The position numbers were made by a program, and so were the translations under genes. A stretch of DNA of 38,437 bases, from contig NW_021832060.1 in assembly GCF_006345805.1 (NCBI RefSeq), positions 1 through 38,437 on the forward strand, given 5' to 3'. The notes below the pieces were generated by a model, which did not search any database, was not told where the DNA came from, and saw only the letters and a program-made list of their open reading frames with translations. Numbering within the stretch: position 1 is the stretch's first letter; the number at the start of each line of letters is the position of its first letter. Shown here in pieces: positions 4,988-38,421 of the stretch. Source of the stretch: Octopus sinensis (Eukaryota).

Positions 4988-5116
4988 TGTATTATGTAGT
5001 ATATATGTATTTATGTATATATGTATGTATGTATATATATATATATCTATATATACATGCATATATCTATATATATATACATGCATATAACTATATATAT
5101 ATATACATACATACAA

Positions 5117-6310
5117 TTGAGATGAAATGATTGTACCGTATTGTTGTTATGAGATGCGATTTAGATTTTTGTTGTGGACGGATGGCACGTGGTCCAAGCC
5201 TTGGATGTATTTCGAAGGTGATGCCAGCATCATTCGGACAGTGCTGATGGAATATTTTCCACATCATACAGTTAATGTAGCGTTCACGGTGTCGTTGGAG
5301 TGAATACAGTTTCAGTTTCTCTAGTCTACCCCAGTAGTCAAGGTCTGACATGCCATCTATCTTTTTTGTGATTGACCTTTGGGGAGCTTCAATTCTCATA
5401 ATATTTTTTTCTGTGTAGGGAGACCACAGTGGACAGCAGTATTCAAGGTGGGGTCGGGCAAAAGTGGAGAAGAGAAGGATAATGGTGTGGGAATTGCTCG
5501 ACTGGAAGGTTCTGAGAATCCAGGAACACATTCTGCGGGCCATATCAACTTTGCTGCTTATATGTGTAGCCCAGCTTATGTTGTTGTCCACTGTTACTCC
5601 CAAGTCTCTGATGTTGTTAGACGCCATGAGAATTTCTCCAGAAGGAAGGGAGTATGGGAGTTTTAGAGCGTCCTCCCTTCCAAAGTGGATCAGTTCGAAT
5701 TTGTCTTCGTTTAGTAACATGTTATTCTTTTCCGCCCATTGGAGGACAGCCAGTAGGTCTGACTGAAGGCTTATTCGGTCATCCACGCGATTGATGACCT
5801 TCTGGAGCTTGGAATCATCAGCGAAAGTTCTGATGTTATTGTGTTTGATGGTGTCAGTAATATCATTTATGTAGATGATGAAGAGAAGTGGGTCCAACAC
5901 AGTGCCTTGTGGGACACCACTGCTGACTTTGGCTGGGCTGGATTTGACTCCTTCGACTACAACATGTTGGGTTCTGTTAGACAGGAAGCACTTGATCCAC
6001 TGCAGCAGCTTTCCAGTGACACCAATATTGGACAGCTTTCTCAAAAGGATCTTATGATCAACCCTGTCAAAGGCCTTGCTGAAATCAAGGAAGATGACAT
6101 CAGTGTTGGAGCCCTCTCCCAAGGCTCTCAAAATGACATCAAAATGATGCAGTAGCTGCGTCAGGCAAACTCTTCCATTACGGAATCCATGCTGTTTGGA
6201 GTTCAGCATATGACTCTCAAGGAAGTGAGTCATACGCGATCTCAGCACTCTCTCAAATACCTTAATGATATGAGAGGTGAGTGAGATTCGACGGTAATTC
6301 ACGGCAAGCG
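5117..6310 (-). mobile_element. CR1/L2-group LINE fragment, RT domain (uninterrupted ~395 codons)
   Basis: NYRRISLTSH, QHGFR, LDFSKAFDRV, GVPQGTVL.PLLF, FADD, RDLGV, RPHLEYCCPLWSP; cut at both ends by TA repeats. Confidence 0.93.
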
Positions 6311-6331
6311 ATTTGTTTCATACATATATAC

Positions 6332-8303: not shown

Positions 8304-12660
<4,357 letters not shown>

Positions 12661-13339: not shown

Positions 13340-16046
13340 TTTTTCTCTTGTTTCAGCTCAGAGCTGCGGCCATGCTGATGCACCACCATTTTGTGCTACA
13401 TTGTTATTGCGAAGAACCTCGTCTAATATGTGGCACTTGGTGAAGAATGGAGTTTCATATTGCTACTCTCATTTGCACCTCTTGCCGTGAGGTAGGTTCA
13501 TCGGGGGACTCGGCAGGAAGATGTCCAGCTTTGATTTAAAAACCGCTACATCTACTTTGTGCAAGTTCCTCAGACTCTTTGGGAGAATATTAAAAAGCTG
13601 TGGGCCCTTGAAACCCAGGCTGTTGCAGAAGCTGGTCCTGAAGCGTGATGGCATTGCTGGGATCTTTGGCACTATGCAGTGTCGTCCCGTTCTAGCATTG
13701 GTGTAGCTTACATTGCCAAAATTTGACACAATTCCTTCCAGGATCTTCCAGACATATATTACTGCATACCTCTCCGTCTTCTCTCCAGGGAGTAGAGTCT
13801 TAGCTGTTTCAACCTTCCCCAGTAGCTGAACTGTTGCAAAGAGACGATCTTCTTTGTGAATCTTCTCTGGATTGCTTCAAGGTCCGCTGTTAATTTTACA
13901 CTGGTGGGTGACATAGTTGTGAGCAGTAATCCAGGCGGCAGAGGACGAATGTCCGCCAGAGGACCATCATGGTTTCCTTATCTCTGGTTCTGAATGTTCT
14001 TAGGGTTAGGGTTAGGGTTAGCCAGTCGTCTGCACTTTGTCGCCATCCTGGTAATGTGCACTTGGAAAGAGGTATCATCACTCATGTCGATACCCAGGTC
14101 CCTCACAGACTTAGGCTCTGGGATTGAAATTCCCTGTAGACCGGTGTATCCTGTAAGTTTAATATTCAGTTGGATGCTGGTAGCGCAGGGGACCTGGAAT
14201 TTTTCAGCATTAAACTGTATATTATTATCCTCAGCCCATCTGTAGATTGAGTCCAACTCCTGCTGCAGGTGTGCAACATCGCTGGGGTTCTGTATTTTCC
14301 GCGAGACTTTCGTGTCGTCTGCATAGCTGGCCAGAGTGGCTATCCGGGCATTTGAGGACATATCTGAGAGGGCCACTATAAAAAGCAGTGGTCCCAAGAC
14401 AGTGCCCTGTGGAACACCGCGCACTATTTGTGTGTTCATAGAGGTGGCTCCATTAAACACTACTGCCTGACTCCTATCTTTCAGGAAGTCATGTAACCAC
14501 ACTCCAAGTTTTCCAGCTATGTCGAGGTCACGCAGTTTGTGGCATATCATACCATTATCCACCTTGTCAAAAGCTTTTGCAAATCAAGGTAGATTACGTC
14601 CACATTTGATTTGTTGAGTAACTGCCAAACACCAGTCATAATGTTGTAAGAGCTGGGTCAGGCAGCTCCTAACTGGTCGATAACCATGCTGGGTATCACT
14701 CAACAAGTTATTTCCTCAAGGAATGCGATTAGTTTCTTTCTGACTATCCGTTCCATGACTTTCCTGATGTGTGAAGTCAGAGAGATAGGCCTATAGTTTT
14801 GGGTATCTGCTCTACTTCCCCCTTTATGTATTGGGCATATTATTCTCTCTTTCAGCTTGCTTGGCAGTTTGTCATTCGCAAGAAAGCTCTGGAAGAGAAT
14901 CTTGAGGGGTTTTGCCAGGGCATGCTTACACGCTATGAGGAGGATGGCTGGGAAACCATCTGGACCAGCAGCTGAGTTTGTGTCCACTTCATCTATGGCT
15001 AGTAGAACATCTTTTTCGCTAATATCAATACATTCTATTGTAACCGCCTCGCTGGTTATAGTTGAGGCGGCAAAGAAGTCCACTGGTTCATTCACTTGTC
15101 TGTGTTCCAACCGGATGGTAAAGACACTTTTGAACTGGTTATTCAGCATCTCACTGATCTTAGTTGAACTGTCTATGAGGGAGCCGTCCTTTTGGATGAG
15201 GGGTCCTATCTTGTAGTGCACTGAGACTGTTTTTCGCGTAATGAAAGAAGGCCTTTGGGTTTGATTTAATATTTTTATAAACCAGGCTTCTTTGTCTGCT
15301 TTCTCCTTCACATAGGATTGTTGCAGCCTTTTTTCGATCTCCATCAGTGTTGTTTTTAGGCGGGATGTTTCGCTACTTTTGGGATGTTGGTTGAGACGAT
15401 TTGCAACCTTCGTCCATCGTCTCATGAGGATCTTCCTGTCTCTTGGAATCTTGCTCCGATTTGTTTTCGCCTTGTGCTCTGGGACATATTTCTGGCATAC
15501 GGCTTGCACAGAAGACATGAAACCTTCTACTTTCATGTCAATGTCTGGTGTGGAGAGACATTCCGGCCAGTCTCTGGGGATCTCTTTTTGGATCGATTTC
15601 TAATCTGCTTTGTGGAAGTTCAGATTGGAGAGATTTCGGGTGCTTCCTTTAGGCTGTATGTCTCTGGTCACTTTTGGACCAAACATAGACAGCTCTATTA
15701 TGTTGTGATCTGAAACTGATGTCGGTGTCACTTTCACATCATGAATGATGTCCATATTGTTCGTGAAGCAGAGATCCAGAATGTTATTCGCCCTAGTGGC
15801 TTGAGTACAATTTGCTCCATGAATAAGGCATTGGTGAGGTTGAGCAGGGGCTCCACCTTTACTTTCTTGCAATGATTCATTCCTGAGAGTATGTGACCTT
15901 CGGGCCATTTGACGTTGGGGAAGTTGAAATCACCGATAAGAAATATGGTCATGTGGTGTTCCAGATTCATGAGGATTTCTTTAATTATTGTGAGGCAATC
16001 TTCAAACTTGCCTGTGTGATTTGGGGCATCCGGTGGGCAATATGTA
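13340..16046 (-). mobile_element. CR1/L2-group LINE, 5'-truncated within APE, intact 3' end, frameshifted
   Basis: YCPPD, IGDFNFP, NILDLCFTN, SDHNII (APE); SAAGPDGFPA, NYRPISLTSH, GVPQGTVLGPLLF, YADD (RT); GPQLFNILP; 3' stem-loop and A-rich tail at 13340-13387. Confidence 0.92.
14000..14021 (+). repeat. Interstitial telomeric repeat (TTAGGG)3+TTAG inside the LINE ORF
   Basis: ttagggttagggttagggttag interrupts the KCRRLA...LRTFRTRD coding sequence. Confidence 0.85.
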
Positions 16047-17400
16047 TTATGCTTCATTTCCTTTATTGCTGCTAAGACATCAGGAGCGCCAAAGGTTATG
16101 TCCGATAAAGTGTATTGGGGAGTAACATCACTGATACAGCCCAGATCAGTCATATCAGGATTGCTGAAAACAGAGCAGTATTGTTTCTGCAATATCTCTC
16201 CCATGGTTTTGGCATTGTCTTGAAGAATACCATTTTCATCAATCAGAGGGCCAACAGTAGAACCAGTGACTCTGTGTATTTTTGCAAATGAAAAGAACAC
16301 TTTGTGATTGAGTTTGATCTTCTCAATGGCCCAGGCCTCTTCAGCTCTTCTCTGACTATTGATGATAGACATCATGTTGTTTTGGAGTTTATGTTTTTTA
16401 ATCTCTAGCGACGAGATGGCAGTCAGGTTGGTGTGTTGCTGTTGACAGTATTTCAGCTCGTTGATTTTTTTTGTTAATTCTTTTAATTTTCCTGATGAGA
16501 TATTTTCTATTTCTAGGGATTCGACACTTAGATTTGTTTGCAGATCTTAATGGGGTGTGGTTTGCACATATGTTCGTAATGGTGTCTACAAATGACTGCC
16601 AGGACTTTTTGATGTTAGTGGGTGTGTATGTGTGCGTGAAGGACCAATCGACTTGTGCAAGATCATTATTGATCGCTTCCCAGTTTGCATTGTGGAAATC
16701 CATAGTGTCAAATGGATGAACAGGAGGGATGACATTTGTTTTGCATTTTGGCCGGTGAAATCTCAGATCACAGAGAACCATGTCATGGTCGGAGAGTAGG
16801 GTTTTCTCCACTGCAATATTGTGGATAGTATCAGTGTGATTGCTGAAAATTAAGTCTAAGACGTTTTTGTGACATCTCGTTGGTTCGAGCACCAGTTGGG
16901 ACAGGAAGAAATCATCCATGAAGTCAAGAAGCGATTCCACTGCCTCCCTGTCAGGGGTTGAGAGAGAAGAACCTGGCAGACTGTTTGTAGACCAGTCAAC
17001 CCCGGGAAGGTTGAAGTCTCCCGTCATTAAAATGTTGTCAGGTTGACACTGCTGAATGAAACACTTTATGTTGTTGAGGCATTCCTTGAAGCATGGTAGG
17101 GGCGTTTGGGGTGTGGTGTAGAGCCCAACTACTGTTAAGTTGTTGGTTTGACTGAATACAGCGACTGCTTCGCAGTATCCATTGGAAAGTATGTTCATAG
17201 CTTCTGTTGAGAATGAATCATGAACATAAATGGCAGTCCCACCCTTTCTTCTGCCAGCACGATCAGCACGAATGGCTTTGAATTTTTAACTTTCACCTCG
17301 GCTTCCAAGTGGAGGTCACTAAGATGGGTTTCAGTGAGGACGAAGAAAGGGATGTGGTTTGGATGGGCATCGATCCAGTCCTCCAGGGAATTTTATCTTC
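16047..17400 (-). mobile_element. Second CR1/L2-group LINE fragment (APE domain and linker)
   Basis: TETHL, RKGGTAIYV, TGDFNLPGVDW, VLDLIFSN, SDHDMV, KVFFSFAK..VGPL; abuts the neighbouring LINE at ~16046. Confidence 0.88.
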
Positions 17401-18370: not shown

Positions 18371-18484
18371 TATATATATATATATATATATATACATCAC
18401 TGTCAATAATATTCTTGTTTGGAAATACTAAATACATCATAAACTATGTACTACAGACATTACACAACATATGTACTATATTTT

Positions 18485-18846
18485 ATAAGCGATTTAAAAA
18501 ACCCCACAAAAACCGTTAGATTCACTTCAACATTTCATTTTAATTTGTTGAAATCTTTTCGTCACTTTCCGACCGTGACCTGTTCACTGACAAAGCTTCA
18601 TATGTATATATATTATATATATACATATATATATTACGGAGATGTACTTGCATAGCAAGTGACTTGATCTGAGATCGTGTGCTGGAACGAAATAATTGCA
18701 GCGTGGAAGGTGTTTATAGCGATTTAAGAAACACACAAAAACCGTTAGATTCACTTCAACATTTCAATTGAATTTGTTCAAATCTTTTCCTCACTTTCCG
18801 ACCGTGACCTGTTCACTGACAAAGCTTCATATGTATATATATATAT

Positions 18847-18879
<33 letters not shown>

Positions 18880-19058
18880 TACGGAGATGTACTTGCATAG
18901 CAAGTGACTTGATCTGAGATCGTGTGCTGGAACGAAAACAATTGCAGCGTGGAAGGTGTTTATAAGCGATTTAAGAAACACACAAAAACCGTTAGATTCA
19001 CTTCAACATTTCAATTGAATTTGTTCAAATCTTTTCGTCGCTTTCAAACGGCGACCTA
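18485..19058 (-). mobile_element. Three tandem ~200 bp Penelope-like/retrozyme-type units separated by TA tracts (last one truncated)
   Basis: Units at ~18485-18603, 18634-18830 and 18879-19058; reverse complement of 20420-21116; hammerhead-like motifs at 18544-18594 and 18773-18823. Confidence 0.7.
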
Positions 19059-20357
19059 CATTGTCCTGTCAGATTCAGGTGGATTGATCGGTTCTGCGAC
19101 CCCTTTCGGGTGAATTAGAGGTCGTTCTAAACACCCCTTGAAGAGAAAGACAGGCAGAGAGTATGGTAGAGCTGTCATGAGAGGGTGATAGGCAGCAGGC
19201 GATAGAGATAGAGTAAGGAATCTTATAGCAGCTAGAGAGGGTATTGGCAGTAAGAGAGGATGAGGGGAAGAGAGAAGAAAAGTAGTGAGAGAGATAGAGT
19301 ATAAGGCTAAGGGACAGATGTGAGGAAGAATTAGCAGTGAGAGAGGATGAGGGGGCAGAGAAGGACAGGCAGAGAGTATGGTAGAGCTGTCATGAGAGGG
19401 TGATAGGCAGCAGGCGATAGAGATAGAGTAAAGAATCAGAGAGCAGATAGAAAGGCTATAAGCGGTAGAGACAGAGGGAGATGAGGGAGTGGAAGTCAGG
19501 ACAAGGAAGTGAGGTTTTGGGCAGTGGGAGTCGGTCGTCAGAGAATCTTGGGAGCGAGCGATGGGATGCAGGAGTTTGGCAGGCTGGATTTAGCGGTACG
19601 GAGAGATGGAGGTGCAATAATGGGACGCTGGCGATTCAATTAGGAATTCAGGTATTTAATTGTATTGATACGTGTTACGATGTAAAAGAAAAGAAAGAGA
19701 AAAGAAGAGAGAAAAAGAAGGACTCTGATGTAGACGATAATGAACTTTGAACGACTAATACATACTAATACATACACCAACCCTATACATACACACGTCC
19801 AGACCTCTCATACGCACTTATACTCTCTCATACACACACACACACACACTTATACATACTAATACGTACTAATACATACTAATACATACTAATACATACA
19901 CCAACCCCATAGATACGCACGTCCAGACCTCTCATACGCACTAATACTCTCTCATACACACACACACACACACACCCTTATACATACTAATACATACTAA
20001 TACATACACCAACCCTATACATACACACGTCCAGACCCCCCCTACGCACTAATAGCTGGGCATTCAACCTATTATCAACCCTATTATCTCCCCTTATTTC
20101 GCTCTCGCGTCTCATGTTTGATCTTTGACCTCTGGCCGAAATCAGATCGCCATGTTCATTCGTTAGTTACTGCACGCATTTTTTTTCTCTCCTTCTTTCT
20201 GTGTTTTTTTTCTCTCTGTGTATCTTTCTGTTGAAGAGCGTAGGCTCGAAACGTTAAAGACTTGTTTTATTTATATTCCTGAGCGCCATACTAATACAAT
20301 TGTTTGTTTGTTTTCCACCTGCCTTCGTCTTTGTCTATATCATAAAGCTTCCCGTTA
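19059..20357 (+). mobile_element. Non-coding insertion ending in a Penelope-like pseudo-LTR; internal direct repeats (~19148-19230/19363-19445; ~120 bp units 19755-20050)
   Basis: T-rich terminal segment with a minimal hammerhead-like motif, ending at a TA tract; interrupts the third left-hand unit. Confidence 0.5.
20223..20260 (+). ncRNA. Minimal type I hammerhead-like motif with atypical CUGUUGA core
   Basis: tcttt-CTGTTGA-a-gagc(gtag)gctc-GAAA-cg-TT-aaaga. Confidence 0.55.
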
Positions 20358-20378
20358 TATATATATATATATCTATAG

Positions 20379-20419
<41 letters not shown>

Positions 20420-20424
<5 letters not shown>

Positions 20425-20607
20425 GCTTTGTCAGTGAACAGGTCACCGTCTCAAAGCGACGAAAATATTTGGACATCTAACGGTTTTTGTGTGTTTCTTA
20501 AATGGCTTATAAACACCTTCCATGCTGAATTGAATTGTTTCGTTCCAGCACACGATATCAGATCAGGTCACTTGCTATGCAAGTACATCTCCGTAATATA
20601 TATATTG

Positions 20608-20645
<38 letters not shown>

Positions 20646-20835
20646 CATATATATATATATATATGAAGCTTTGTCAGTGAACAGGTCACCGTCTCAAAGC
20701 GACGAAAATATTTGGACATCTAACGGTTTTTGTGTGTTTCTTAAATGGCTTATAAACACCTTCCATGCTGAAATTGTTTTCGTTCCAGCACACGATATCA
20801 GATCAGGTCACTTGCTATGCAAGTACATCTCCGTA

Positions 20836-20866
<31 letters not shown>

Positions 20867-20872
20867 TAATAT

Positions 20873-20918
<46 letters not shown>

Positions 20919-21116
20919 TAAGCTTTGTCAGTGAACAGGTCGCGGTCGGAAAGCGACGAAAATATTTTAACAAATTCAATTTAAATGTTGAAGTGAATCT
21001 AACGGTTTTTGTGTGTTTCTTAAATCGCTTATAAACACCTTCCACGCTGCAATTATTTTCGTTCCAGCACACGATCTCAGATCAGGTCACTTGCTATGCA
21101 AGTACATCTCCGTAAT
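20420..21116 (+). mobile_element. Three tandem ~180-200 bp Penelope-like/retrozyme-type units separated by TA tracts
   Basis: Units ~20420-20597, 20663-20837, 20918-21116, each starting aagctttgtcagtgaacaggtc. Confidence 0.7.
20924..20974 (+). ncRNA. Minimal type I hammerhead with G3-C8 variant core (best of five complete copies)
   Basis: tttgtca-GTGAACA-g-gtcgc(ggtcggaaa)gcgac-GAAA-atat-TT-taacaaa; stem II covaries to gtcac/gtgac in copy 18544-18594. Confidence 0.65.
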
Positions 21117-21364
21117 GTACTTAATTGCTACACAGAAATAAGTAAAAAAAAAAAAACAAGAAAAAACATTTTCTAGTAAAAAAATTGTTTTATTGAATTA
21201 GAAAAAAATTCATTTTAATTAACAAAAAACAAATCAGTAAATCCGGGAATCTTGTTAGTGTTTGTTGTATTGGTTGCAGTACTGGTACTATCAGTGGTAT
21301 TGTCTTGGGTAGTTGTTCCTAGGGATTCTCATGTTGCTGTAACTAGTAGTAGTAATTAGTTAGA

Positions 21365-21738
21365 TAATTAGTTAGTTAGTTAGTTAGTTCTTTTTTGGCT
21401 CAAAAAGCAAAAGCAAGGCCATGTAGGGGGGACATGGAGTTATGTACAGGGTGGTGTTCATGTAAAGAGTTCAGGCCATTTCTGGTCAAGGGAGACTTTG
21501 AACCGAGCGGTCGTCGTCAGCATCTTCACCATCTCGTCCGGAAGCTTGTTCCACGGATCCGCAACCCGGACGGAGAAAGACTCTCCTTCGACTGAGATGA
21601 GATCGTCGCAGATAGAGCTTTTCGGAGTGACCCCGCAACCTACGCTCTGGAGCAGGAGTGAAGAACAGCTCTTTCGAGAGGTTACACTTTCCGCTTATGA
21701 TGTTGTGAGCAAGAATGAGATCACAACGGCGTCGTCTA
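21365..21738 (-). mobile_element. CR1-group LINE 3' end (family B) with (AACT)n tail
   Basis: Translates RRRRCDLILAHNIISG..LRGHSEKL..FSVRVADPWNKLPDEMV..FKVSLDQKWPELFT*; tail seen as (agtt)n at ~21371-21389. Confidence 0.82.
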
Positions 21739-21740
21739 GG

Positions 21741-22886
21741 GGGTATGGAGAAAATCAGGTGTAGTGTTGGCGAATCTCAGGAAGCATGGAAGTTTTGAAG
21801 GATGCAGTGCTCCGACAACTAACAACTGATACCGGCAGTTTGTTCCATGCTTCAGCGTGTGTATGGAGGGGAGAAGATCAGGTGTGGTGTGGGCTAATCT
21901 CAGGAAGCATGGAAGTTTTGAAGGATGCAGTGCTCCGACAACTAACAACTGATGCCGGCAGTTTGTTCCATGCTTGTGTGTGTATGGATGGGAGAAAATC
22001 AGGTGTAGTGTTGGCGAATCTCAGGAAGCATGGAAGTTTTGAAGGATGCAGTGCTCCGATAACTAACAACTGATGCCGGCAGTTTGTTCCATGCTTCGTG
22101 TTGTATGGAAGGGCAAAATCAGGTGTAGTGTTGGCGAATCTCAGGAAGCATGGAAGTTTTGAAGGATGCAGTGCTCCGATAACTAACAACTGATGCCGGC
22201 AGTTTGTTCCATGCTTCAGCGTGTGTATGGAAGGGACAAAATCAGGTGTGTAGTGTGGCGAATCTCAGGAAGCATGGAAGTTTTGAAGGATGCAGTGCTC
22301 CGATAACTAACAACTGATGCCGGCAGTTTGTTCCATGCTTCAGCAACTCTCAGCGTGAAAAAATGTTTCCTGAAGTCATGGGAGCTGTGCTGTTTTCTGA
22401 CTTTCTAAATATGACCACGGGTGTTAGATGGGTGTGGTTTGAAAAGGTGCTCAGAGTTATTGTTTGTAAGATGGTTAATAATTTTATGGGTGTCTGCCAA
22501 GTCAGCTGCCAGACGTCGGAGTTTCAATGTATCCATGCCCAGGGAAGTAAGGCGTTCAGAATATGGCAAATTCCTGATGGAGGTTATTCTTTTGGTTGCA
22601 CATCGCTGAACGGCTTCCAGACGATTGATATCCTGGGCAAGAAAGGGGTTCCAGACCGGTGATGCAAATCCAGGTGAGATCTTACCATAGCTATATAAAG
22701 CCGCAGATAGATAGTCGGAGAGCGGCTCACAAAGGACTTGGTGAGTGATGCCAAGACACCCTCAGCTTCTTGGCAATTTTAGCAATGTGTTTTGTCCAAC
22801 ACGAATCTCTGTCGACAATAATACCCAGGTCACGTTCACAAGAAGACTTTTTGAGATTAGTGTTGTGGAGGGAGTAATTGGACGCT
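21741..22886 (-). mobile_element. CR1-group LINE 3' end (family A) with the terminal ~122 bp repeated five times
   Basis: ERDLGIIVD, SPVWNPFL..DINRLEAVQR, NTRGH, FFTLRVAEAWNKLPASVV; repeat anchors tcagg at 21755, 21878, 21999, 22119, 22242. Confidence 0.87.
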
Positions 22887-23054: not shown

Positions 23055-26000
23055 GATTTTTTTGTGCGCCCTTTCCAAGCCTAGCCTAACCCTAACCCTC
23101 ATGGGCCCGGTTTCCCGGTTTCTGTGGCGTATGTGTTCCCCCACCCTCTGCGTTACCCAAGAAACAGGAAGAAAGTATGAGAGAAAGTTGGGGCGAAAAA
23201 ATAGAACAGGGGGTCGCCACCGACCCCTGCCGGAGCCTCGTGGAGCTTTTAGGTGTTTTCGCTCAATAAACACACACAACGCCCGGTCTGGGAATCGAAA
23301 CCGCGATCCTCCGACCACGAGTCCGCTGCCCTAACCACTGGGCCATTGGCCTCCACAAAATATTTTCGCCCTTTTCAAGCCTAGCCGGGCTCGTGGGCCC
23401 GGTTTCCCGGTTTCTGTGGCGTATGTGTTCCCCCTCCCCTCAGCGTTACCCAAGAAAAGAAAGAGAGAGTGAGAAAAAGTTGGGCAAATGAGTACAACAG
23501 GGGTCGCCACCGACCCCTGCCGGGGAGTCTCGTAGAGCTTTTAGGCGTTTCGCTCAATTGAAGCACTCCGTCGGTTACGACGACGAGGGTTCCGTTGATC
23601 CGAATCAACGGAACAGCCTGCTCGTGAAATTGACATTGTAATGGCTGAGCACTCCACAGACACGTGCACCCTTAACGGAGTTCTCGGGGATATTCAGCGT
23701 GACACAGAGGGGACAAGGCCGGCCCTTTGAAATACAGGTTAACAGAAACAGGAAGTAAGAGTGAGAGAAAGTTGTGGTGAAAGAGTACAACAGGGGTCCC
23801 CACAATCCCTGCAGGAGCACTCCGTCGGTTACGACGATGAGAGTTCCGGTTGATCCGAATCAACGGAACAGCCTGCACGTGAATTAACGTGTAAGTGGCT
23901 GAGCACTCCACAGACACGTGCACCCTTAACGGAGTTCTCGGGGATATTCAGCGTGACACAGAGGGTGACAGGCCGGCCCTTTGAAATACAGGTACAACAG
24001 AAACAGGAAGTAAGAGAGAGTGAGAGAAAGTTGTGGTGAATTGAAAGAGTAAAAGGGTCCCACAATCCCCTGCAGGAGCACTCCGTCGGTTACGACGAGA
24101 GAGTTCCGGTTGATCCGAATCAACGGAACAGCCTGCACGTGAAAAACGTGTAAGTGGCTGAGCACTCCACAGACACGTGCACCCTAACGGAGTTCTCGGG
24201 GATATTAGCGTGACACAGAGAGTGACAAGGACGGCCCTTGAAATACAGGTACACAGAAACAGGAGAAAGAGTGAGAGAAAGTTGTGGTGTGTGTGTGAAA
24301 GAGTACAACAGGGGTTCCCACAATCCCCTGCAGGAGCACTCCGTCGGTTACGACGATGAGAGTTCCGGTTGATCCGAATCAACGGAACAGCCTGCACTGA
24401 AATTAACGTGTAAGTGGCTGAGCACTCACAGACACGTGCACCCTTAACGGAGTTCTCGGGGATATTCAGCGTGACACAGAGAGTGACCAGGCCGGCCCTT
24501 TGAAATACAGGTACAAACAGAAACAGGAAGAAAGATGAGAGAAAGTTTGGTGAAAGAGTACAAACAGGGGTCGCCCCGACCCCCGCCGGAGCCTCGTGGA
24601 GCTTTTTTTGGTTTTCGCTCAATAACAATCACAACGCCCCGGTACAAACAGGTACAACAAAACAGGAAGAAAGAAAGAGTGAGAGAAAGTTGTGGTGAAA
24701 GAGTACAACAGGGATCACCACAATCCCCTGCCGGAGCCTTCGCGGAGCTTTTAGGTGTTTTCGCTCAATAAAAACACGCAACGCCCGCCGGTGTGGGAAT
24801 CGAAACGCGATCACTCCGACCACGACAAGTTTCCGCTGCCCTAACCATGGGCCATTGCGCCTAACCACATGGGTGTATATATATATAGGCTGGCTCTTGA
24901 AATACAGGTACAACAGAAACAGGAAGTAAGAGCGAGAGAAAGTTGTGGTGAAAGAGTACAACAGGGGTCGCCACCGACCCATGCCGGAGCTCGTGGAGCT
25001 TTTAGGCGTTTTCGCTCAATAAAACACACGCAACGCCGGTCTGGGAATCGAAACCGCGATCTACGACCACGAATCCGCTGCCCTAACCACTGGGCCACTG
25101 CGCCTCCCACAAAAATAAATTCGCCCATTTCAAGCCTAGCCGGGCTCATGGACCGGGTTTCCCAGTTTCTGTGGCGTATGTGACCCCCACCCCAGCAGGA
25201 CGGGACGTTACCCAAGAAACAGAAAGAGAGAGTGAGAGAAAGTTGTGGCAAATGAGTACAACAGGGGTCGCCACCACCCCCTGCCGGAGCCTCGTGGAAC
25301 TTTTAGGCGTTTTCGCTCAATAAACACACACAACGCCCGGTCTGGGAATCGAAACCGCGATCCTCCGACCACAAATCCGCTGCCCTAACCACTGGGCCAT
25401 TGCGCCTCCCCAAAATGAATTCGCCCATTTCAAACCTAGCCGGGCTCGTGGGCCCGGTTTCCCGGTTTCTGTGGCGTATGTGACCCCCACCCCAGCAGGA
25501 CGGGACGGCCAAGAAACAGAAAGAGAGAGTGGAGAAGTTGTGGAAAATGAGTACAACAGGGGTCGCCACAACCCCCTGCCGGCGCCTCGTGGAGCTTTTA
25601 GGCGTTTTCGCTCAATAAACAAACACAACGGCCCGGTCTGGGAATCGAAACCGCGATCCTCGACCACGAATCCGCTGCCCTAAACCATTGGGCCATTGCG
25701 CTCAAAATTGTGGATATATATATAGGCTGGCTCTTTTTGCAATACAGGTACAACCGAAACAGGAAAGTAAGAGCGAGAGAAAGTGGTGGTGTGAAAGAGT
25801 ACAACAGGGGTCGCCACCGACCCCTGCCGGAGCCTCGTGGAGCTTTTAGGCGTTTTCGCTCAATAAACACACACAACGCCCGGTCTGGGAATCGAAACCG
25901 CGATCCTCCGACCACGAATCCGCTTGCCCTAACCCACTGGGCCATTGCGCTCACAAAATAAATTCGCCCATTTCAGCCTAGCCGGGCTCATGGCCGGGGT

Positions 26001-26569: not shown

Positions 26570-27538
26570 ATCATTTCAGTCATTTCACTGCGGCCATGCT
26601 GGAGCACACCGCCTTTAGTCGAGCAAATCGACCCCGGGACTTATTCTTTGTAAGCCCAGTACTTATTCTATTCTATCGGTCTCTCTTTGCCGAACCGCTA
26701 AGTAACGCTAGGGGGGGACAAACACAGACACACAAACACAGACACACACACTTATATATATATATACATATATACGACAGGCTTCTTTCAGTTTCCGTCT
26801 ACCAAATCCACTCACAAGGCTTTATATATATATATATATACTCTTTTACTCTTTTACTTGTTTCAGTCATTTGACTGCGGCCATGCTGGAGCACCGCCTT
26901 TTTAGTCGAGCAAATCGACCCCGGGACTTATTCTTTGTTAGCCCAGTACTTATTCTATCGGTCTCTTTTGCCGAACCGCTAAGTGACAGGGACGTAAACA
27001 CACCAGCATCGACCCTGGGACTTATTCTTTGTAAGCCCAGTACTTATTCTATCGGTCTCTTTTGCCGAACCGCTAAGTGACGGGGACGTAAACACACCAG
27101 CATCGACCCTGGGACTTATTCTTTGTAAGCCCAGTACTTATTCTATCGGTCTCTTTTGCCGAACCGCTAGGTGACGGGGACGTAAACACACCAGCATCGA
27201 CCCTGGGACTTATTCTTTGTAAGTCCAGTACTTATTCTATCGGTCTCTTTTGCCGAACCGCTAGGTGACGGGGACGTAAACACACCAGCATCGACCCTGG
27301 GACTTATTCTTTGTTAGCCCAGTACATATTCTATCGGTCTCTTTTGCCGAACCGCTAAGTGACGGGGACATAAACACACCAGCATCGACCCTGGGACTTA
27401 TTCTTTGTAAGCCCAATACTTATTCTATCGGTCTCTTTTGCCGAACCGCTAGGTGACGGGGACGTAAACACACCAGCATCGACCCCGGGACTTATTCTTT
27501 GTAAGCCCAGTACTTATTCTATCGGTCTCTTTTGCCGC
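26570..27538 (-). mobile_element. CORE-like SINE fragments with seven tandem 94 bp internal units
   Basis: cgacc anchors at ~26916, 27010, 27104, 27198, 27292, 27386, 27480. Confidence 0.87.
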
Positions 27539-29693: not shown

Positions 29694-31166
29694 ATGTTTC
29701 TTTATTAGCCACACAGGGCTGCACACAGATAGAACAAATTACAAGGTAGAGCTTTTCATTTGAAGGTTTAAAAAAAAAAAGAAAGGGAAGGGGGAGTTTC
29801 GATCAAAAGGGATCGTAAAAGGAGAGAAAGAGGACAAAAAAAGGGGGGTTAAAAAAAAAAGGGGGAGAGGAAAAAAAAAAATTGATCAATAGTGATCGTT
29901 ATCACAGAAATGTCAATATTAAGTGTAAAGGGGAGGACAGGTGAGGTTTACCCGTGGAAAGAAAAGCCTACGGAAAAGACCACGGTAACCTCGGTCAATG
30001 GAGTCACACGTTATATTTCTTTTTTTTTTTTGCAAATAAGCAACTCTCTGTTTTCAATTTCTGGGTTCATAGGATCATGCTCAAGGTGGCTTCGTCATTC
30101 ATACGTGCCATTCTTGCTACATTCACCCATCTTTTTTTAAAACATTCGCTAGACAAAACTTGCCTCTCTACTCTCACTTTCCTTTTCAAGTGGTACTTGA
30201 AGAAGTTGATGAGAGATTGACCAGAGAGGAAAGTGTTTGTCTCCAATCCTTTCAGACGCGTCCACCAGATACATTCTTTCGCCATAGCCACAATGATGAT
30301 GAAAATAGCTCTTCCTTCCCGTTTGAAGGAGGGAGGCGTGACAATATTGACGATAGACTCAGCTGATAAACCGACTCGTCCCACACGTGACAGCAGTTGT
30401 TCGACATAAGCCCACAGGTCGGAAATTGTTGGACACTGCACGAGTGCGTGCAGAACGGTTTCGTCGCTCTGACCGCATCTCGGGCAGGTCGGCCCCGTGT
30501 TTCTCGAGCCGTGTCTGTAGAGCTTATCCCGAACGGGTAGCGCTTCTCGGTAGCACTGCCAGGCCAGGGATCTCTGGAAGTTGTCCATGGGCCCTGGCCC
30601 GAAAGTCGTCCTGAACAGGCGGGTCAGGTACTCCTCGTCGACGTCCAGGTTCACCCCGAGCTCGTCGTCGTACCTCCCCTCCACTAAACCCCTATAGAAT
30701 GCTTTGGTTGTGTTGAAGTCACTCAAGGTCGACCCAGGACGGCAGAGTTGCTTGAGAGCAACGCGACACTCGCGGTGCCATTCGCCCTTCTTCGGCCTCT
30801 TTTTGATCCACGACTGCAGTTCGGTCATGGAGACGAGCTGCGGGAAAGCGTGCCTCACAAACGGCGACCACACCTGTTCACCGTCGTCTACATAGAGCCA
30901 GAGATGTCGCAGTCTCAGCGCGTGTCTGCGCATCATCAACCACGGCATGCCCAGCCCTCCTTTTAACGGGTGTTGTGACAGCAAATGGATCGCCTGACCA
31001 TCAGGACGCATCCTTTCCACAAGAAGCGAAAGAGAATGCGTTGTAGTTTGGTGATGGTAGGGTCGGGACAAGGTACGACGGTCAGGCGGTAGTAGATGAC
31101 GGACGCGATGTACGTGTTCGCCACCTCCGCCCGACCTTTTAGGGACAGTTTCCTCTCGGCCCATTG
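29694..31166 (-). mobile_element. Tx1/L1-clade LINE, 5'-truncated
   Basis: W..RKLSLKGR, KGGLGMP, zf-RVT-type CPRCGQSDETVLHALVQC; pyrimidine-rich 3' UTR ending aataaagaaacata at the microsatellite. Confidence 0.88.
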
Positions 31167-31316
31167 TTCTGCTATTAATTCCATTCCTAATTCATCCAGA
31201 CATATCCAAAAATTATCGTTCTATGAAAGATACACAGGATCGAACTCCGATCTCAGATTTTAAAAATATAAAAAAAAATTTGTCTTTTCACATTATTTGA
31301 AGAATTTTTCACTTAC

Positions 31317-31449: not shown

Positions 31450-33747
31450 CTAGCAGTATCGCCCGGCGTTGCTCGGGTTTGTAAGGGAAATAACCATATA
31501 AGCATTTTTAGAGAGTTATAGCCAAAAAATAGCAAGAAAATGCATTAAAAATGGGAAAAAATGATGGTAATGTTTTTAAAATCGTAGACTTATCGGAGTT
31601 GCGCGCTAATACCCAGAAGGGCTCGTTATGAAGTATCGCCCGGCGTTGCTCGGGTTTGTAAGGGAAATAACCATATAAGCATTTTTAGAGAGTTATAGCG
31701 AAAAATAGCAAGAAAATGCATTAAAAATGGGAAAAAATGATGGTAATTTTTTTTTTATCGTAGACATATCGTAGACGCGCGCTAATACCCAGAAGGGCTC
31801 GTTATGAAGTATAGCGAGGCGTTGCTCGGGTTTGTAAGGGAAATAACCATATAAGCATTTTTAGAGAGTTATAGCCAAAAATTTGCAAGAAAATGCATTA
31901 AAAATGGGAAAAAATGATGGTAATTTTTTAAAATCGTAGACTTATCGTAGACGCGCGCTAATACCCAGAAGGGCTCGTTATGAAGTATCGCCCGGCATTG
32001 CTCGGGTTTGTAAGGGAAGAAACCATATAAGCATTTTTAGAGAGTTATAGCCAAAAAATAGCAAGAAAATGCATTAAAAATGGGAAAAAATGATGGTAAT
32101 TTTTTTAAAATCGTAGACTTATCGTAGACGCGCGCTAATACCCAGAAGGGCTCGTTATGAAGTATCGCCCGGCGTTGCTCGGGTTTGTAAGGGAAATAAC
32201 CATATAAGCATTTTTAGAGAGTTATAGCCAAAAAATAGCAAGAAAAGCATTAAAAATGGGAAAAAATGATGGTAATGTTTTTAAAATCGTAGACTTATCG
32301 TAGTCGCGCGCTAATACCCAGAAGGGCTCGTTATGAAGTATCGCCCGGCGTTGCTCGGGTTTGTAAGGGAAATAACCATAAAAGCATTTTTAGAGAGTTA
32401 TAGCGAAAAAATAGCAAGAAAATGCATTAAAAATGGGGAAAAATGATGGTAAATGTTTTTTAAATCGTTGACTCATCGTAGACATTTTAAGAGAGTTATT
32501 TCCCTTGTATAATAATGAAAAAATGCATTAAAATGAAAAAAAATGATGGTAAATTGTTTTAAAAATCGTAGACTCATCGTAGACATTTTTAGAGAGTTAC
32601 TTCCCTTATATAATAACGAAAACATGAAATTAAAATGAAAAAAATAATGGTAAATTGTTTTAAAAATCGTAGACTCATCGCAGACGCGCGTTAATACCCA
32701 GAAGGGCTCGATATGAATCACGACTATAAGATACCCGCTTTTGGTTACACTGCACCGCAAAATGTGGGAGTAGTTAGGAATCTAAATCGTATGAGACAGA
32801 CAGCACACAACCTCACTTTTATATATAAAGAATAGCAGTATCGCCCGGCGTTGCTCGGGTTGTAAGGGAAATAACTATATAAGCATTTTTAGAGAGTTAT
32901 AGCCCAAAAATAGCAAAAAATGCATTAAAATGGGAAAAAATGATTGTAAATTTTTTAAATCGTAGACTCATCGTAGACACGCGCTAATACCCAGAAGGGC
33001 TCGATATGAATCACGACTATAAGATACCCGCTTTTGGTTACTCTGCACCGCAAAATGTGGGAGTAGTTAGGAATCTAAATCGTATGAGACAGACAGCACA
33101 CAACCTCACTTTTATATATAAAGACTAGCAGTATCGCCCGGCGTTGTTCGGATTTGTAAGGGAAATAACTATATAAGCATTTTTAGAGAGCTATAGCGAA
33201 AAAATAGCAAGAAAATGCATTAAAAATGGCGAAAAATTATGGTAATTTTTTTTAAATCGTAGACATCGTAGACGCGCGCTAATACCCAGAAGGGCTCGTT
33301 ATGAAGTATCGCCCGGCGTTGCTCGGGTTTGTAAGGGAAATAACTATATAAGCATTTTTAGAGAGTTATAGCGAAAAAATAGCAAGAAAATGCATTAAAA
33401 ATGGGAAAAAATTATGGTAATTTTTTTTTTAATCGTAGACGCGCGCTAATACCCAGACGGGCTCGATATGAATCACGACTATAAGATACCCGGTTTTGGT
33501 TAAATTGCACCGCAAAATGTGGGAGTAGTTAGGAATCTAAATCAGAGGAGACAGAGTCTGACACAACTTCATTTTTATATATAACTAGCAGTATCGCCCG
33601 GCGTTGCTCGGGTTTGTAAGGGAAATAACCATATAAGCATTTTTAGAGAGTTATAGCCAAAAAAATAGCAAAAAATGCATTAAAAATGGGAAAAAATGAT
33701 GGTAATTTTTTTTTCTTACATCGTAGATATATCGTAGACGCGCGCTA
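31450..33747 (-). mobile_element. Non-autonomous Helitron head-to-tail array with ~177 bp subrepeats
   Basis: Minus-strand 3' CTAG preceded by hairpin cccgagcaacgccggg, 5' TC end, CTAG|TC junction at 33124/33125 (degenerate at 32831, 33585); subrepeats at 31455, 31632, 31808, 31984, 32161, 32337, 33305. Confidence 0.78.
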
Positions 33748-34611: not shown

Positions 34612-35465
34612 TTACGTTCTGAGTTCAAATTCCGCCGAGGTCGACTTTACCTTTCATCATTTCAGGGTCGATAAATAAAGTACCAGTTACGCACTGGGGT
34701 CGATATAATCGACTTAATCCGTTTGTCTGTCCTTGTATGTCCCCTCTATGTGTAGCCCCTTGTGGGTAGTAAAGAAATAGGTATTTCGTCTGCTGTTACG
34801 TCCTGAGTTCAAATTCCGCCGAGGTCGACTTTACCTTTCATCGTTTCAGGGTCGATAAATAAATTACCAGTTACGCACTGGGGTCGATAAAATCGACTTA
34901 ATCCGTTTGTCCCGTTTGTCTTCGGTGTTCCTTTTAGTAAAGAAATAGGTATTTCGTCTGCTGTTACGTCTGAGTTCAAATTCCGCAAAGGTGACTTTAC
35001 CCATCATTTCAGGGTCATAAATAAAGTAAATACGCAGGTCGATATAATCGACTAATCGTTTGTTGTCCTTGTTATCTTCTCGGTGTTAGCCCTTTGTGGG
35101 TAGTAAAGAAATAGGTATTCGTCTCTGTTACGTCCTGAGTTCAAATTCCGCCGGGTCGACTTTACTTTCATCATTTCAGGGTCGATAAATAAAGTACCAG
35201 TTACGCACTGGGGTCGATGTAATCGACTTAATCCGTTTGTCTGTCCCCTCTGTGTGTAGCCCCTTGTGGGTAGTAAAGAAATAGGTATTTCGTCTGTCGT
35301 TACATTCTGAGTTCAAATTCCGCCGAGGTCAACTTAGCCTTTCATCATTTCGTGGTCGATAAATAAAGTACCAGTCACGCACTGGAGTCAATATAATCGA
35401 ATTAATCCCTTTGTCTGTCCTTGTTTGTCCCCTCTATGTTTAGCCCTTGTGGGCAATAAAGAAAT
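34612..35465 (+). mobile_element. Five tandem 5'-truncated SINE units (~165-185 bp)
   Basis: Repeating ttacgt.ctgagttcaaattccgccgaggtcgactttacctttcatc...cttgtgggtagtaaagaaata (B-box-like gagttcaaattc). Confidence 0.85.
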
Positions 35466-35511
35466 ATACAATTATTACACATGGGATATTAATGTCTATC
35501 AAGTATACCTA

Positions 35512-35870
35512 GGCGTAGTATAGTCGTAGGAGTGGCTGTGTGGTAAGTAGCTTGCTTACCAACCACATAGTTCCGGGTTCAGTCCCAATGCGTGGCACCT
35601 TGGGCAAGTATATTCACCTAAAGCCTTGGGCTGAACAAAACCTTGTGAGTGGATTTGGTAGACGGAAACTGGAAGAAGCCCGCCGTATATATGTAATCGG
35701 GCGAAGGAGTGGCTGTGTGGTAAGTAGATTGCTTACCAACCACATGGTTCCGGGTTCAGTCCCACTGCGTGGCACCTTGGGCAAATATCTTCTACTAAAG
35801 CCTTGGGCTGAACAAAACCTTGTGAGTGGATTTGGTAGACGGAAACAGAAAGAAGCCCGTCGTATATATG

Positions 35871-35929
<59 letters not shown>

Positions 35930-36878: not shown

Positions 36879-37710
36879 CCTTGTGAGTGGATTTGGTAGA
36901 CGGAAACTGAAAGAAGCCCGTCGTATATATATATATGTGTAGGAGTGGCTGTGTGGTAAGTAGCTTGCTAACCAACCACATGGGTCCAGGTTCAGTCCAT
37001 GCGTGGCATCTTGGGCAAGTCTTATTCTGCTATAGCCCCGGGCCCGACCAATGACTTGTGAGTGGATTTGGTAGACGGAAACTGAAAGAAGCCTGCCGTA
37101 TATATGTATATATATATAAGCGTGTGTGTATATGTTTGTGTGTCTCTGTCCTTCTAGCATTGTTTGACAACCGATGCTGGTGTGTTTATGTCCCCGTCAC
37201 TTAGTGGTTCGGCAAAAGAGACCGATAGAATAAGTTCTGGGCTTACAAAGAATAAGTACCCGGGGTCGATTTGCTCGACTAAAAGGCGGTGCTCCAGCAT
37301 GGCCGCAGTAAAATGACTGAAACAAGTAAAATAAAATAACATATATATAGGCAAAGGAGTGGCTGTGTGGTAAGTAGCTTGCTTACCAACCACATGGTTC
37401 TCTGTTCAGTCCCACTGCGTGGCATATTGGGCAAATGTCTTCTGCTAGAGCCTCGGGCCAACCAATGCTTTGAGAGTGGATTTGGTAGACGGAAACTGAA
37501 AGAAGCCCGTCGTATATATGTATATATATATGTGGTGTCTTGTTGTCCCCTAGCATTGCTTGACAACCGATGCTGGTGTGTTTACGTGCCCGTCACAAAA
37601 GACACTGGGCTTACAAAGAATACGTCCCGGGGGTCGATTTGCTCGCTTAAAGGCGGTGCTCCAGCATGGCCGCAGTCAAATGACTGAAACAAGTAAAAGA
37701 GTAAAAGAGT
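35512..37710 (+). mobile_element. Tandem array of tRNA-headed CORE-like SINEs
   Basis: Heads ggagtggctgtgtggtaagtagc..gggttcagtccc at ~35528, 35706, 36462, 36942, 37356; CORE-like ggcaccttgggcaagt; tails ending (gtaaaaga)n. Confidence 0.88.
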
Positions 37711-38392
37711 ATATATATACATATATACACAAATATAAGAGGGTGACCACCATATGGTCGACTCTTGCGCTAAAAATAGATCCGCTATGGTATTAGCCAC
37801 TATATATATATATAGACTAAAGGCAGTGCTCCAGCATGGCCGCAGTCAAATGACTGAAACAAGTAAAAGAGTAAAAGAGTATATATATACATATATACAC
37901 AAATATAAGAGGGTGACCACCATATGGTCGACTCTTGCGCTAAAAATAGATCCGCTATGGTATTAGCCACTATATATATATATAGACTAAAGGCAGTGCT
38001 CCTGCATGGCCGCAGTCAAATGACTGAAATAAGTAAAAGAGTAAAAGAGTATATATATACATAAATACACAAATATAAGAGGGTGACCACCATATGGTCG
38101 ACTCTTGCGCTAAAAATAGATCCGCTATGGTATTAGCCACTATATATATATAGACTAAAGGCAGTGCTCCAGCATGGCCGCAGTCAAATGACTGAAACAA
38201 GTAAAAGAGTAAAAGAGTATATATATACATATATACACAAATATAAGAGGGTGACCACCATATGGTCGACTCTTGCGCTAAAAATAGATCCGCTATGGTA
38301 ATAGCCACTATATATATATATATATAGACTAAAAGCAGTGCTCCAGCATGGCCATAGTCAAATGACTGAAACAAGTAAAAGAGTAAAAGAGT
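37640..38392 (+). repeat. ~170 bp tandem repeat (SINE tail + 70 bp hairpin-rich spacer), four units
   Basis: gggtgaccaccatatggtcgactcttgcgc at 37741, 37911, 38081, 38249. Confidence 0.9.
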
Positions 38393-38421
38393 AGACGAGT
38401 ATGTGTATACGTGGGTCTTAC

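Follow-up and report, generated by a model that had tools for sequence, protein, structure and literature searches.

The window, by which we mean the whole 38,437-nt stretch of Octopus sinensis contig NW_021832060.1 that was analysed, carries two clusters of short repeat units, one on the minus and one on the plus strand. These are listed in Table 1 together with the other features of the region. Six copies of a single motif lie within the units, five complete and one truncated, and we could confirm both their positions and the way in which the preliminary description had read them. Each complete copy consists of a 5' stem I arm, GUGAACA, one extra G, a 5-bp stem II, GAAA, AUAU or AGAU, UU, and the 3' arm of stem I. 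The motif is that of a minimal type I hammerhead whose core pair is G3-C8, where one more nucleotide precedes stem II and helix III is palindromic. U20967 is indeed the N17 position of the copy at 20924. The pattern GUGANCA-N-stem II-GAAA was found five times in the window, compared with a mean of 0.07 in 200 dinucleotide-block shuffles. As had also been anticipated, searches based on CUGANGA or on Rfam models are blind to the motif: an Rfam scan of the window returned 106 matches up to E = 10, with no hammerhead family among them.

The preliminary description had noted stem mismatches in several copies. The mismatches are real, but their extent had been underestimated, as none of the five complete copies is free of them. 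Each carries one to three mismatches in stem I, three are also mismatched in stem II, and the two complete minus-strand copies have a broken helix III palindrome (AAGAUU). In the window copies, the core is retained and the helices are mismatched. A strict motif scan of the window gave no match; the stem I mismatches of these copies adjoin the core. Nor did the covariation that had been seen in stem II (gtcgc/gcgac against gtcac/gtgac) stand, since within the window it amounts to two CpG-type transitions. When we inspected the same pair in 74 dispersed copies of the family, it was G-C in 62, G-U in 8, A-C in 3, U-C in 1 and A-U in none; both transitions together occurred in 0 of the 74, and one alone in 11. 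True covariation is found between families and not inside the window.

Table 1. Features of the window, in order of position
Feature	Position	Strand	Remarks
Non-LTR retrotransposon fragments	614-1603, 5091-6317, 8304-11769, 13469-17285, 30067-31191		zf-RVT matches in two fragments; remainder by motifs
Cassette	18390-21750		Flank, minus cluster, spacer, plus cluster, flank
pLTR fragment	18482..18599	-	3' end cut short
Hammerhead	18544-18594	-	Two stem I mismatches; helix III palindrome broken
(TA)n tracts between units	18600-18633, 18829-18878, 20597-20664, 20837-20918		
pLTR fragment	18634..18828	-	
Hammerhead	18773-18823	-	Additional G10.1-G11.1 mismatch; likely dead
pLTR fragment	18879..19057	-	Truncated at A9; without core 3-8 and stem I 5' arm
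Separate hammerhead-like motif, other repeat family	20221..20262	+	CUGUUGA core (A6 to U), extra A, stem II GAG/CUC, GAAA-CG-UU
(TA)n tract preceding plus cluster	20356..20421		
pLTR fragment	20422..20596	+	5' truncation 12 nt ahead of G3; hammerhead followed by an internal deletion; ORF start (ATG) at 20502
G3-C8 hammerhead, damaged	20427..20477	+	A-G mismatch at stem I base (4 bp left); A-C in stem II
pLTR fragment	20665..20836	+	Tandem duplicate of the 20422..20596 unit; same lesions; ATG at 20745
G3-C8 hammerhead, damaged	20670..20720	+	Identical to 20427-20477
pLTR fragment, best preserved	20919..21115	+	Extends to long 3' end (CATCTCCGTAA); mutated ORF start, ATC at 21024
G3-C8 hammerhead	20924..20974	+	Stem I 20924-30/20968-74, one C-A mismatch
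Core of the 20924 copy	20931-37	+	Extra G 20938; stem II 20939-43/20953-57; GAAA 20958-61
Palindrome AAUAUU of the 20924 copy	20961-66	+	N17 = U20967
Unrelated tandem arrays, 94-353 nt	21747-22341, 23562-25701, 26914-27537, 31455-33472, 34612-35872, 37648-38393		

The parent Penelope-like element

A connection to Penelope-like elements (PLEs) had been proposed, and this connection holds: the motif belongs to the pseudo-LTR (pLTR) of an autonomous PLE with a predicted RT and, at the C-terminus, a GIY-YIG domain. Walking upstream from the motif, we encountered a microsatellite-rich 3' UTR, then the GIY-YIG domain, and then the RT. The longest open frame comprises 1,042 aa and contains the motifs SMDVVSLYPS, YVDD and VYQIKC..YIGET, and a CX3CxxC linker, the GIY-YIG/CCHH residues and PLE-type RT motifs can be seen by eye in the ORF. 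A Pfam search of the family's own ORF returned no match. In the homolog P0118, the Pfam GIY-YIG model passes and RVT_1 appears only below the cut-off, and a profile built from 18 relatives gave weak matches to RTs in the PDB (E = 0.0008 and 0.02). The protein is thus assigned as a probable RT/GIY-YIG on its motifs, its homologs and the weak PDB RT matches. Its best named homolog is an Octopus protein with 56% identity.

We then compared the loci at which this ORF occurs. At the top eight, which share 95-97% identity, a perfect G3-C8 motif lies 0.9-1.05 kb past the stop on the same strand in six, whereas two have no such motif. The repeat unit continues straight into the 5' region of the ORF in 7 of the 9 loci listed, and the first in-frame ATG of the ORF lies inside the unit, 3' of the hammerhead. 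In one locus, L279, the pLTR-ORF-pLTR structure is complete, the ORF lying between motifs at 1558 and 5919, 4.36 kb apart; direct pLTRs flank the ORF both there and in L280. The ATG found at 20502 in the window is in frame with the ORF in L260, L261, L265 and L271, and the 20919..21115 unit shares 90% identity with the pLTR that ORF-bearing copies carry. The hallmarks of PLEs, namely 5' truncation, an inverted 5' partner and an optional 3' tail, are present, and the organisation is the same as that described for PLEs elsewhere (PMC8557442, PMC4209133, PMC11167929). Among the frames listed, no PLE ORF was found at the same-orientation pairs on C1 or at the C2:2.03 Mb tandem. A GIY-YIG fragment upstream of the L037 copy was dropped, as it is part of a different element.

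The CX3CxxC linker and the (TA)n targets suggest a Neptune/Nematis-type placement. Like the EN+ PLEs of this type (Craig et al. 2021, PMC8557442), the element appears to have a C-terminal GIY-YIG with CCHH residues, a CX2-5CxxC linker, (TA)n targets and inverted 5'-truncated partners, a likeness by features and not by tree. Penelope and Poseidon, in contrast, are without the CX3CxxC finger in the endonuclease linker. A 2026 repeat annotation of Octopus vulgaris lists 31 Penelope-like families, and its main text does not mention hammerheads (PMC13282606).

The family across the genome

In the 2.7-Gb genome, a 15-mer core of the motif has 7,496 matches, compared with 2 for its reversed control, and in 3,044 copies the core, stem II, helix III and the proximal part of stem I are all intact. 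Dispersed pieces of about 200 nt make up most of the copies. A (TA)n tract often comes after them, and they frequently stand head-to-head with a partial, inverted copy. In a sample of 101 copies, partly picked for an intact core, the 3' ends were bimodal, lying at +119 to +127 from G3 in 34 and at +177 to +180 in 52, and the 5' ends clustered 17-25 nt before G3 in 37. The 3-8 pair was G-C in 72 of 74 dispersed copies, a set part of which had been picked for an intact core. Intact copies possess stems I and II, U4, G5, A6, A9, G12, A13 and A14, the A15.1-U16.1 pair and an NUH site, and their AAUAUU is self-complementary in 6 of 6 pairs. Within this family, which we call family A, loop II differs between subfamilies, and the core and stems are constant.

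Published PLE hammerheads (PMC4209133) share much of this description. They too lie in the pLTRs of RT+GIY-YIG elements and are found mostly as dispersed truncated copies, with an additional nucleotide separating positions 9 and 10.1, a G10.1-C11.1 pair, and pairs of copies on opposite strands. The helix III palindromes are much alike, with AUAUAU in Drosophila virilis and AAUAUU here, and our 7-bp stem I is longer than in the published PLE hammerheads (PMC4209133).

The 3-8 pair in related lineages

Related ORF-linked families with the same architecture but other cores were found in the same genome: CUGAAGA in family B, CUGAUGC in family D, and UUGAAAA in family E. The 3-8 pair is therefore G-C in family A, C-G in families B and D, and U-A in family E. 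In an alignment of 22 rows, hand-picked from 39, it was G-C in 10, C-G in 9 and U-A in 3, covariation counts that reflect three lineages only. Two stem II pairs had changed on both sides in these rows, and 99.2% of 132 cells were paired, compared with 4.5-51.5% in slid controls; the measure "pairs changed on both sides" was no better than in shuffles (96/500). U4, G5, A6, G12, A13, A14 and A15.1 were invariant in all 22 rows. A tree of 23 C-terminal protein fragments resolved A, E and B+D as three supported lineages. Since these lineages are separate, the 3-8 pair has been retained through at least two double changes, and its Watson-Crick pairing, in a different form in each of the three lineages, speaks for a genuine minimal type I hammerhead.

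Natural U3-A8 cores have already been published (PMC3088659), and the variant is known among PLE hammerheads (PMC4209133). An engineered G3-C8 pair partly restores cleavage (PMC3884650), also in the PLE hammerhead of PAc, a Poseidon element of Anolis, in the form of the C3G/G8C double mutant (Frangieh et al. 2024, PMC11167929). In family A, by contrast, G3-C8 is natural and fixed. The swap is tolerated because position 8 works via its 2'-OH (PMC12192606). We found no natural G3-C8 core in the literature searched, where it is absent from the main text of PMC4209133 and from the 9 GUGA strings of its searchable supplement; published alignments or supplements beyond this literature may list one. 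A natural G3-C8 core has likely not been reported so far.

The other families deserve a short description. Family D, a sister PLE at 56% identity, has several long open frames and the fixed core CUGAUGC, with C in place of A9 (L199:6387-6437, L242, L243, L207, L245). That A9 to C is tolerated in this family hints at cores under possibly loose constraint. The family E PLE combines its U3-A8 core with a GUUGC/GCAAC stem II (L206:6828-6877, L239, L205). An older, decayed family has a UUGAUGA-type core and similar arms (L125, L126, L108, L130). Outside the window, a U3-A8 hammerhead-like motif with a UUGAAAA core and a CGCG palindrome lies in an inverted repeat insert of other cassette copies (L033, about 2600-2800; same segment in L031).

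We considered whether the G3-C8 motif might be a retained but non-catalytic structure, such as a site bound by the PLE protein or an element of the promoter or 5' UTR, in which 3-8 pairing would serve folding only. Pairing of positions 3 and 8 belongs to the catalytically active hammerhead conformation, and retention of the pair through the double changes, together with the seven invariant positions, argues against such a role. The data of PMC3088659 are consistent with the pair belonging to the active conformation. On the other side, fewer than 1% of copies start at the cleavage site (41 in a last-base-restricted search, against 6,489 similarly restricted anchors), and A9C and A6U are found in other local families. 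PLE hammerheads were described as cleaving poorly in vitro (PMC4209133), and according to the report on PAc, ribozyme mutants leave insertion unaffected and no RNA-seq reads end at the cut (PMC11167929). Taking both sides into account, we regard a non-catalytic role as unlikely.

Proposed working of the element

The reading that we favour, and hold to be probable, is that the window repeats are truncated and mutated pLTR fragments of the PLE, and that the intact pLTR carries a fixed G3-C8 minimal type I hammerhead fold, likely to cleave slowly and only as a dimer. Transcription would start 22 nt before G3, placing the ribozyme in the 5' UTR. Reverse transcription would be primed internally about 125 and about 179 nt after G3, usually into (TA)n, and priming in the 5' pLTR would yield the abundant solo copies of about 200 nt, in which the additional G would stem from copying of the cap. 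Through AAUAUU as helix III, two ribozymes may pair and cut after U17. As a consequence, either the cap and a 58-nt leader would be lost, or unit-length RNA would be freed from pLTR-ORF-pLTR transcripts. Cleavage would be dispensable for most insertions, and solo copies would be cDNAs of capped, uncut, linear RNA.

The 5' ends of the copies bear on the proposed start. In a hand count of the first 100 of 1,190 matches, which included about 4 duplicate rows, the base before the AG start (22 nt before G3) was G in 38 of 53 non-run-through rows, and a second count gave 19 of 28. The element itself has C or T at the position of this extra G, and bases further upstream are not conserved. In L1, such an extra G reflects the mRNA cap (PMC11702581); by analogy, the extra G found here is likely a cap footprint. 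The 5' hotspot might instead be a spliced junction, with an intron acceptor (...ACTAAC...TTTCTCAG/ATG) and with short copies derived from spliced RNA. A branch-point-like ACTAAC, a pyrimidine tract and an AG do lie ahead of the site, and the intron of Drosophila virilis Penelope ends at helix I (PMC4209133). However, only a single extra base, the G, is shared upstream of the AG, and positions -2 and -3 vary (-2: T in 9, A in 7, C in 3), so that exon 1 would be 3 nt long. We consider splicing an improbable source of the hotspot.

Folding calculations were used to assess cleavage by a dimer. With a 6-bp helix III, the dimer of the intact motif was computed at -27.2 kcal/mol; the cofold minimum reached -31.3 and a pair of monomers -29.4. 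The dimer fold is higher than the cofold minimum by about 4 kcal/mol in the intact motif and by 11.5-17 in window pairs. Because the dimer fold falls short of the minimum even in intact copies, these models would predict slow and conditional cleavage. At the predicted cut site, hand counting left 41 true breaks out of 53 matches; a control site located 3 nt upstream gave about 15 out of 66, and the comparison is confounded by microhomology. Fourteen of the 41 arose via the 7-nt stem I microhomology, 18 were other inversions or repeats, and 9 ran into flank, mostly TA-ambiguous. Few family copies thus begin at the cut site, and in PAc likewise, uncut RNA is the main insertion template (PMC11167929). 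At C7:20655452 and C27:7257157, the 5' end is a short repeat run from the predicted cut site, possibly reflecting RT slippage at a cleaved RNA end. Four putative-RNA contig sets cover the unit and contain no ends and no U17 back-joint, a result that counts for neither side.

PAc resembles the present element in other respects. Its ORF also starts inside the pLTR, its targets are AT-rich, and its two internal RT start sites, demonstrated in vitro, define a tail, to which the two 3' end points found here appear alike (PMC11167929). The tail measures about 55 nt here and 30-40 nt in PAc, and the hammerhead would lie within the 5' UTR here, whereas it overlaps the start codon in PAc (PMC11167929).

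Collectively, our analysis identifies a real motif of a known system, the PLE pLTR hammerhead, with a natural G3-C8 core backed by cross-lineage covariation and with predicted cleavage. Natural variation of the hammerhead core now extends to G3-C8, which is otherwise an engineered rescue mutant in the literature searched, and Rfam and CUGANGA searches overlook a family of thousands of copies. A single genome offers a natural core series of G3-C8, C3-G8, U3-A8, A9C and A6U. Moreover, the solo copies make the likely transcription start and both priming sites readable in the genome, which eases tests of the role of PLE hammerheads in vivo. A more far-reaching proposal can be made, though only tentatively. 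This may be the first natural fixed G3-C8 hammerhead, borne with its core pair reversed by a young, ORF-intact Penelope lineage. Located in the 5' UTR, it might serve as a decapping switch that depends on concentration, thousands of solo pLTRs might document where uncut RNA has its capped start and its two internal priming sites, and swapped cores may exist in PLE clades reported as hammerhead-free.

Origin of the arrays in the window

Both clusters in the window begin at one truncation, 12 nt before G3, after (TA)n. Such clusters were found in 12 contigs among 40 candidates scored, with up to 8 units per array, and the flanks were co-duplicated in 4 of 4 cassettes examined. From contig to contig, the arrays carry the same lesions at corresponding positions. 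Of 60 rows audited (2 of them duplicates), not one has all three helices intact. Since the lesions are shared across contigs, the arrays are best taken as DNA-level duplicates of damaged copies. One truncated insertion would have been followed by later tandem and inverted duplication at the DNA level in a multi-copy segment. The window locus represents decayed duplicates, and its arrays are likely inactive or weak.

The preliminary description had instead seen a tandem retrozyme family with an output of monomeric or circular RNAs. We found mostly dispersed pLTR fragments of an autonomous element and no intact row among the 60 array rows audited, and the dispersed copies, with a likely cap-derived G and an uncut ribozyme, point to linear RNA templates. 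That the arrays are non-LTR retrozymes, whose read-through transcripts would self-cut to monomers of 230-250 nt, circularise and be spread by PLE proteins, seems to us very unlikely: the 229-254 nt tandem units, each bearing a type I motif, the array of up to 8 units in another contig, the single mismatch of the 20924 copy and a proposed derivation of retrozymes from PLE pLTRs (bioRxiv 10.64898/2026.07.22.740005) would fit, but the lesions occupy fixed array positions in every contig and were not seen among dispersed copies in the loci examined, the units are joined at the truncation point plus variable (TA)n and not at the cleavage site, the flanks are co-duplicated, and dispersed copies look cap-derived. 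Retrozymes are recognised by two consecutive complete ribozymes (bioRxiv 10.64898/2026.07.22.740005, PMC7229834), which the arrays do not contain, none of the 60 array rows audited being intact. The definition of non-LTR retrozymes also includes a canonical type I ribozyme with loop 1-loop 2 tertiary contacts and expression as monomeric linear and circular RNA. The likeness to non-LTR retrozymes (Cervera and de la Pena 2020, PMC7229834; Li et al. 2026 preprint) lies in tandem units of 150-450 nt with a type I motif in each. Unlike these, the present family has a minimal PLE-type motif and an autonomous ORF-bearing form, all of its array copies are damaged, and its units, separated by (TA)n, were duplicated along with their flanks.

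Some further features of the region can be described. The cassette of Table 1 is present in about a dozen mostly small contigs, with a variable number of units. In L031 and L032, large ORFs lie between plus units and resemble, by motifs only, a non-LTR LINE insertion. The separate motif at 20221-20262 was absent from the preliminary description; the same motif occurs in L202, with an 89% match in L199, and the segment that carries it stands in place of a different insert of other cassette copies. Fragments of non-LTR retrotransposons are found on both sides of the cassette. The unrelated tandem arrays of the window reflect a general local tendency toward tandem duplication.
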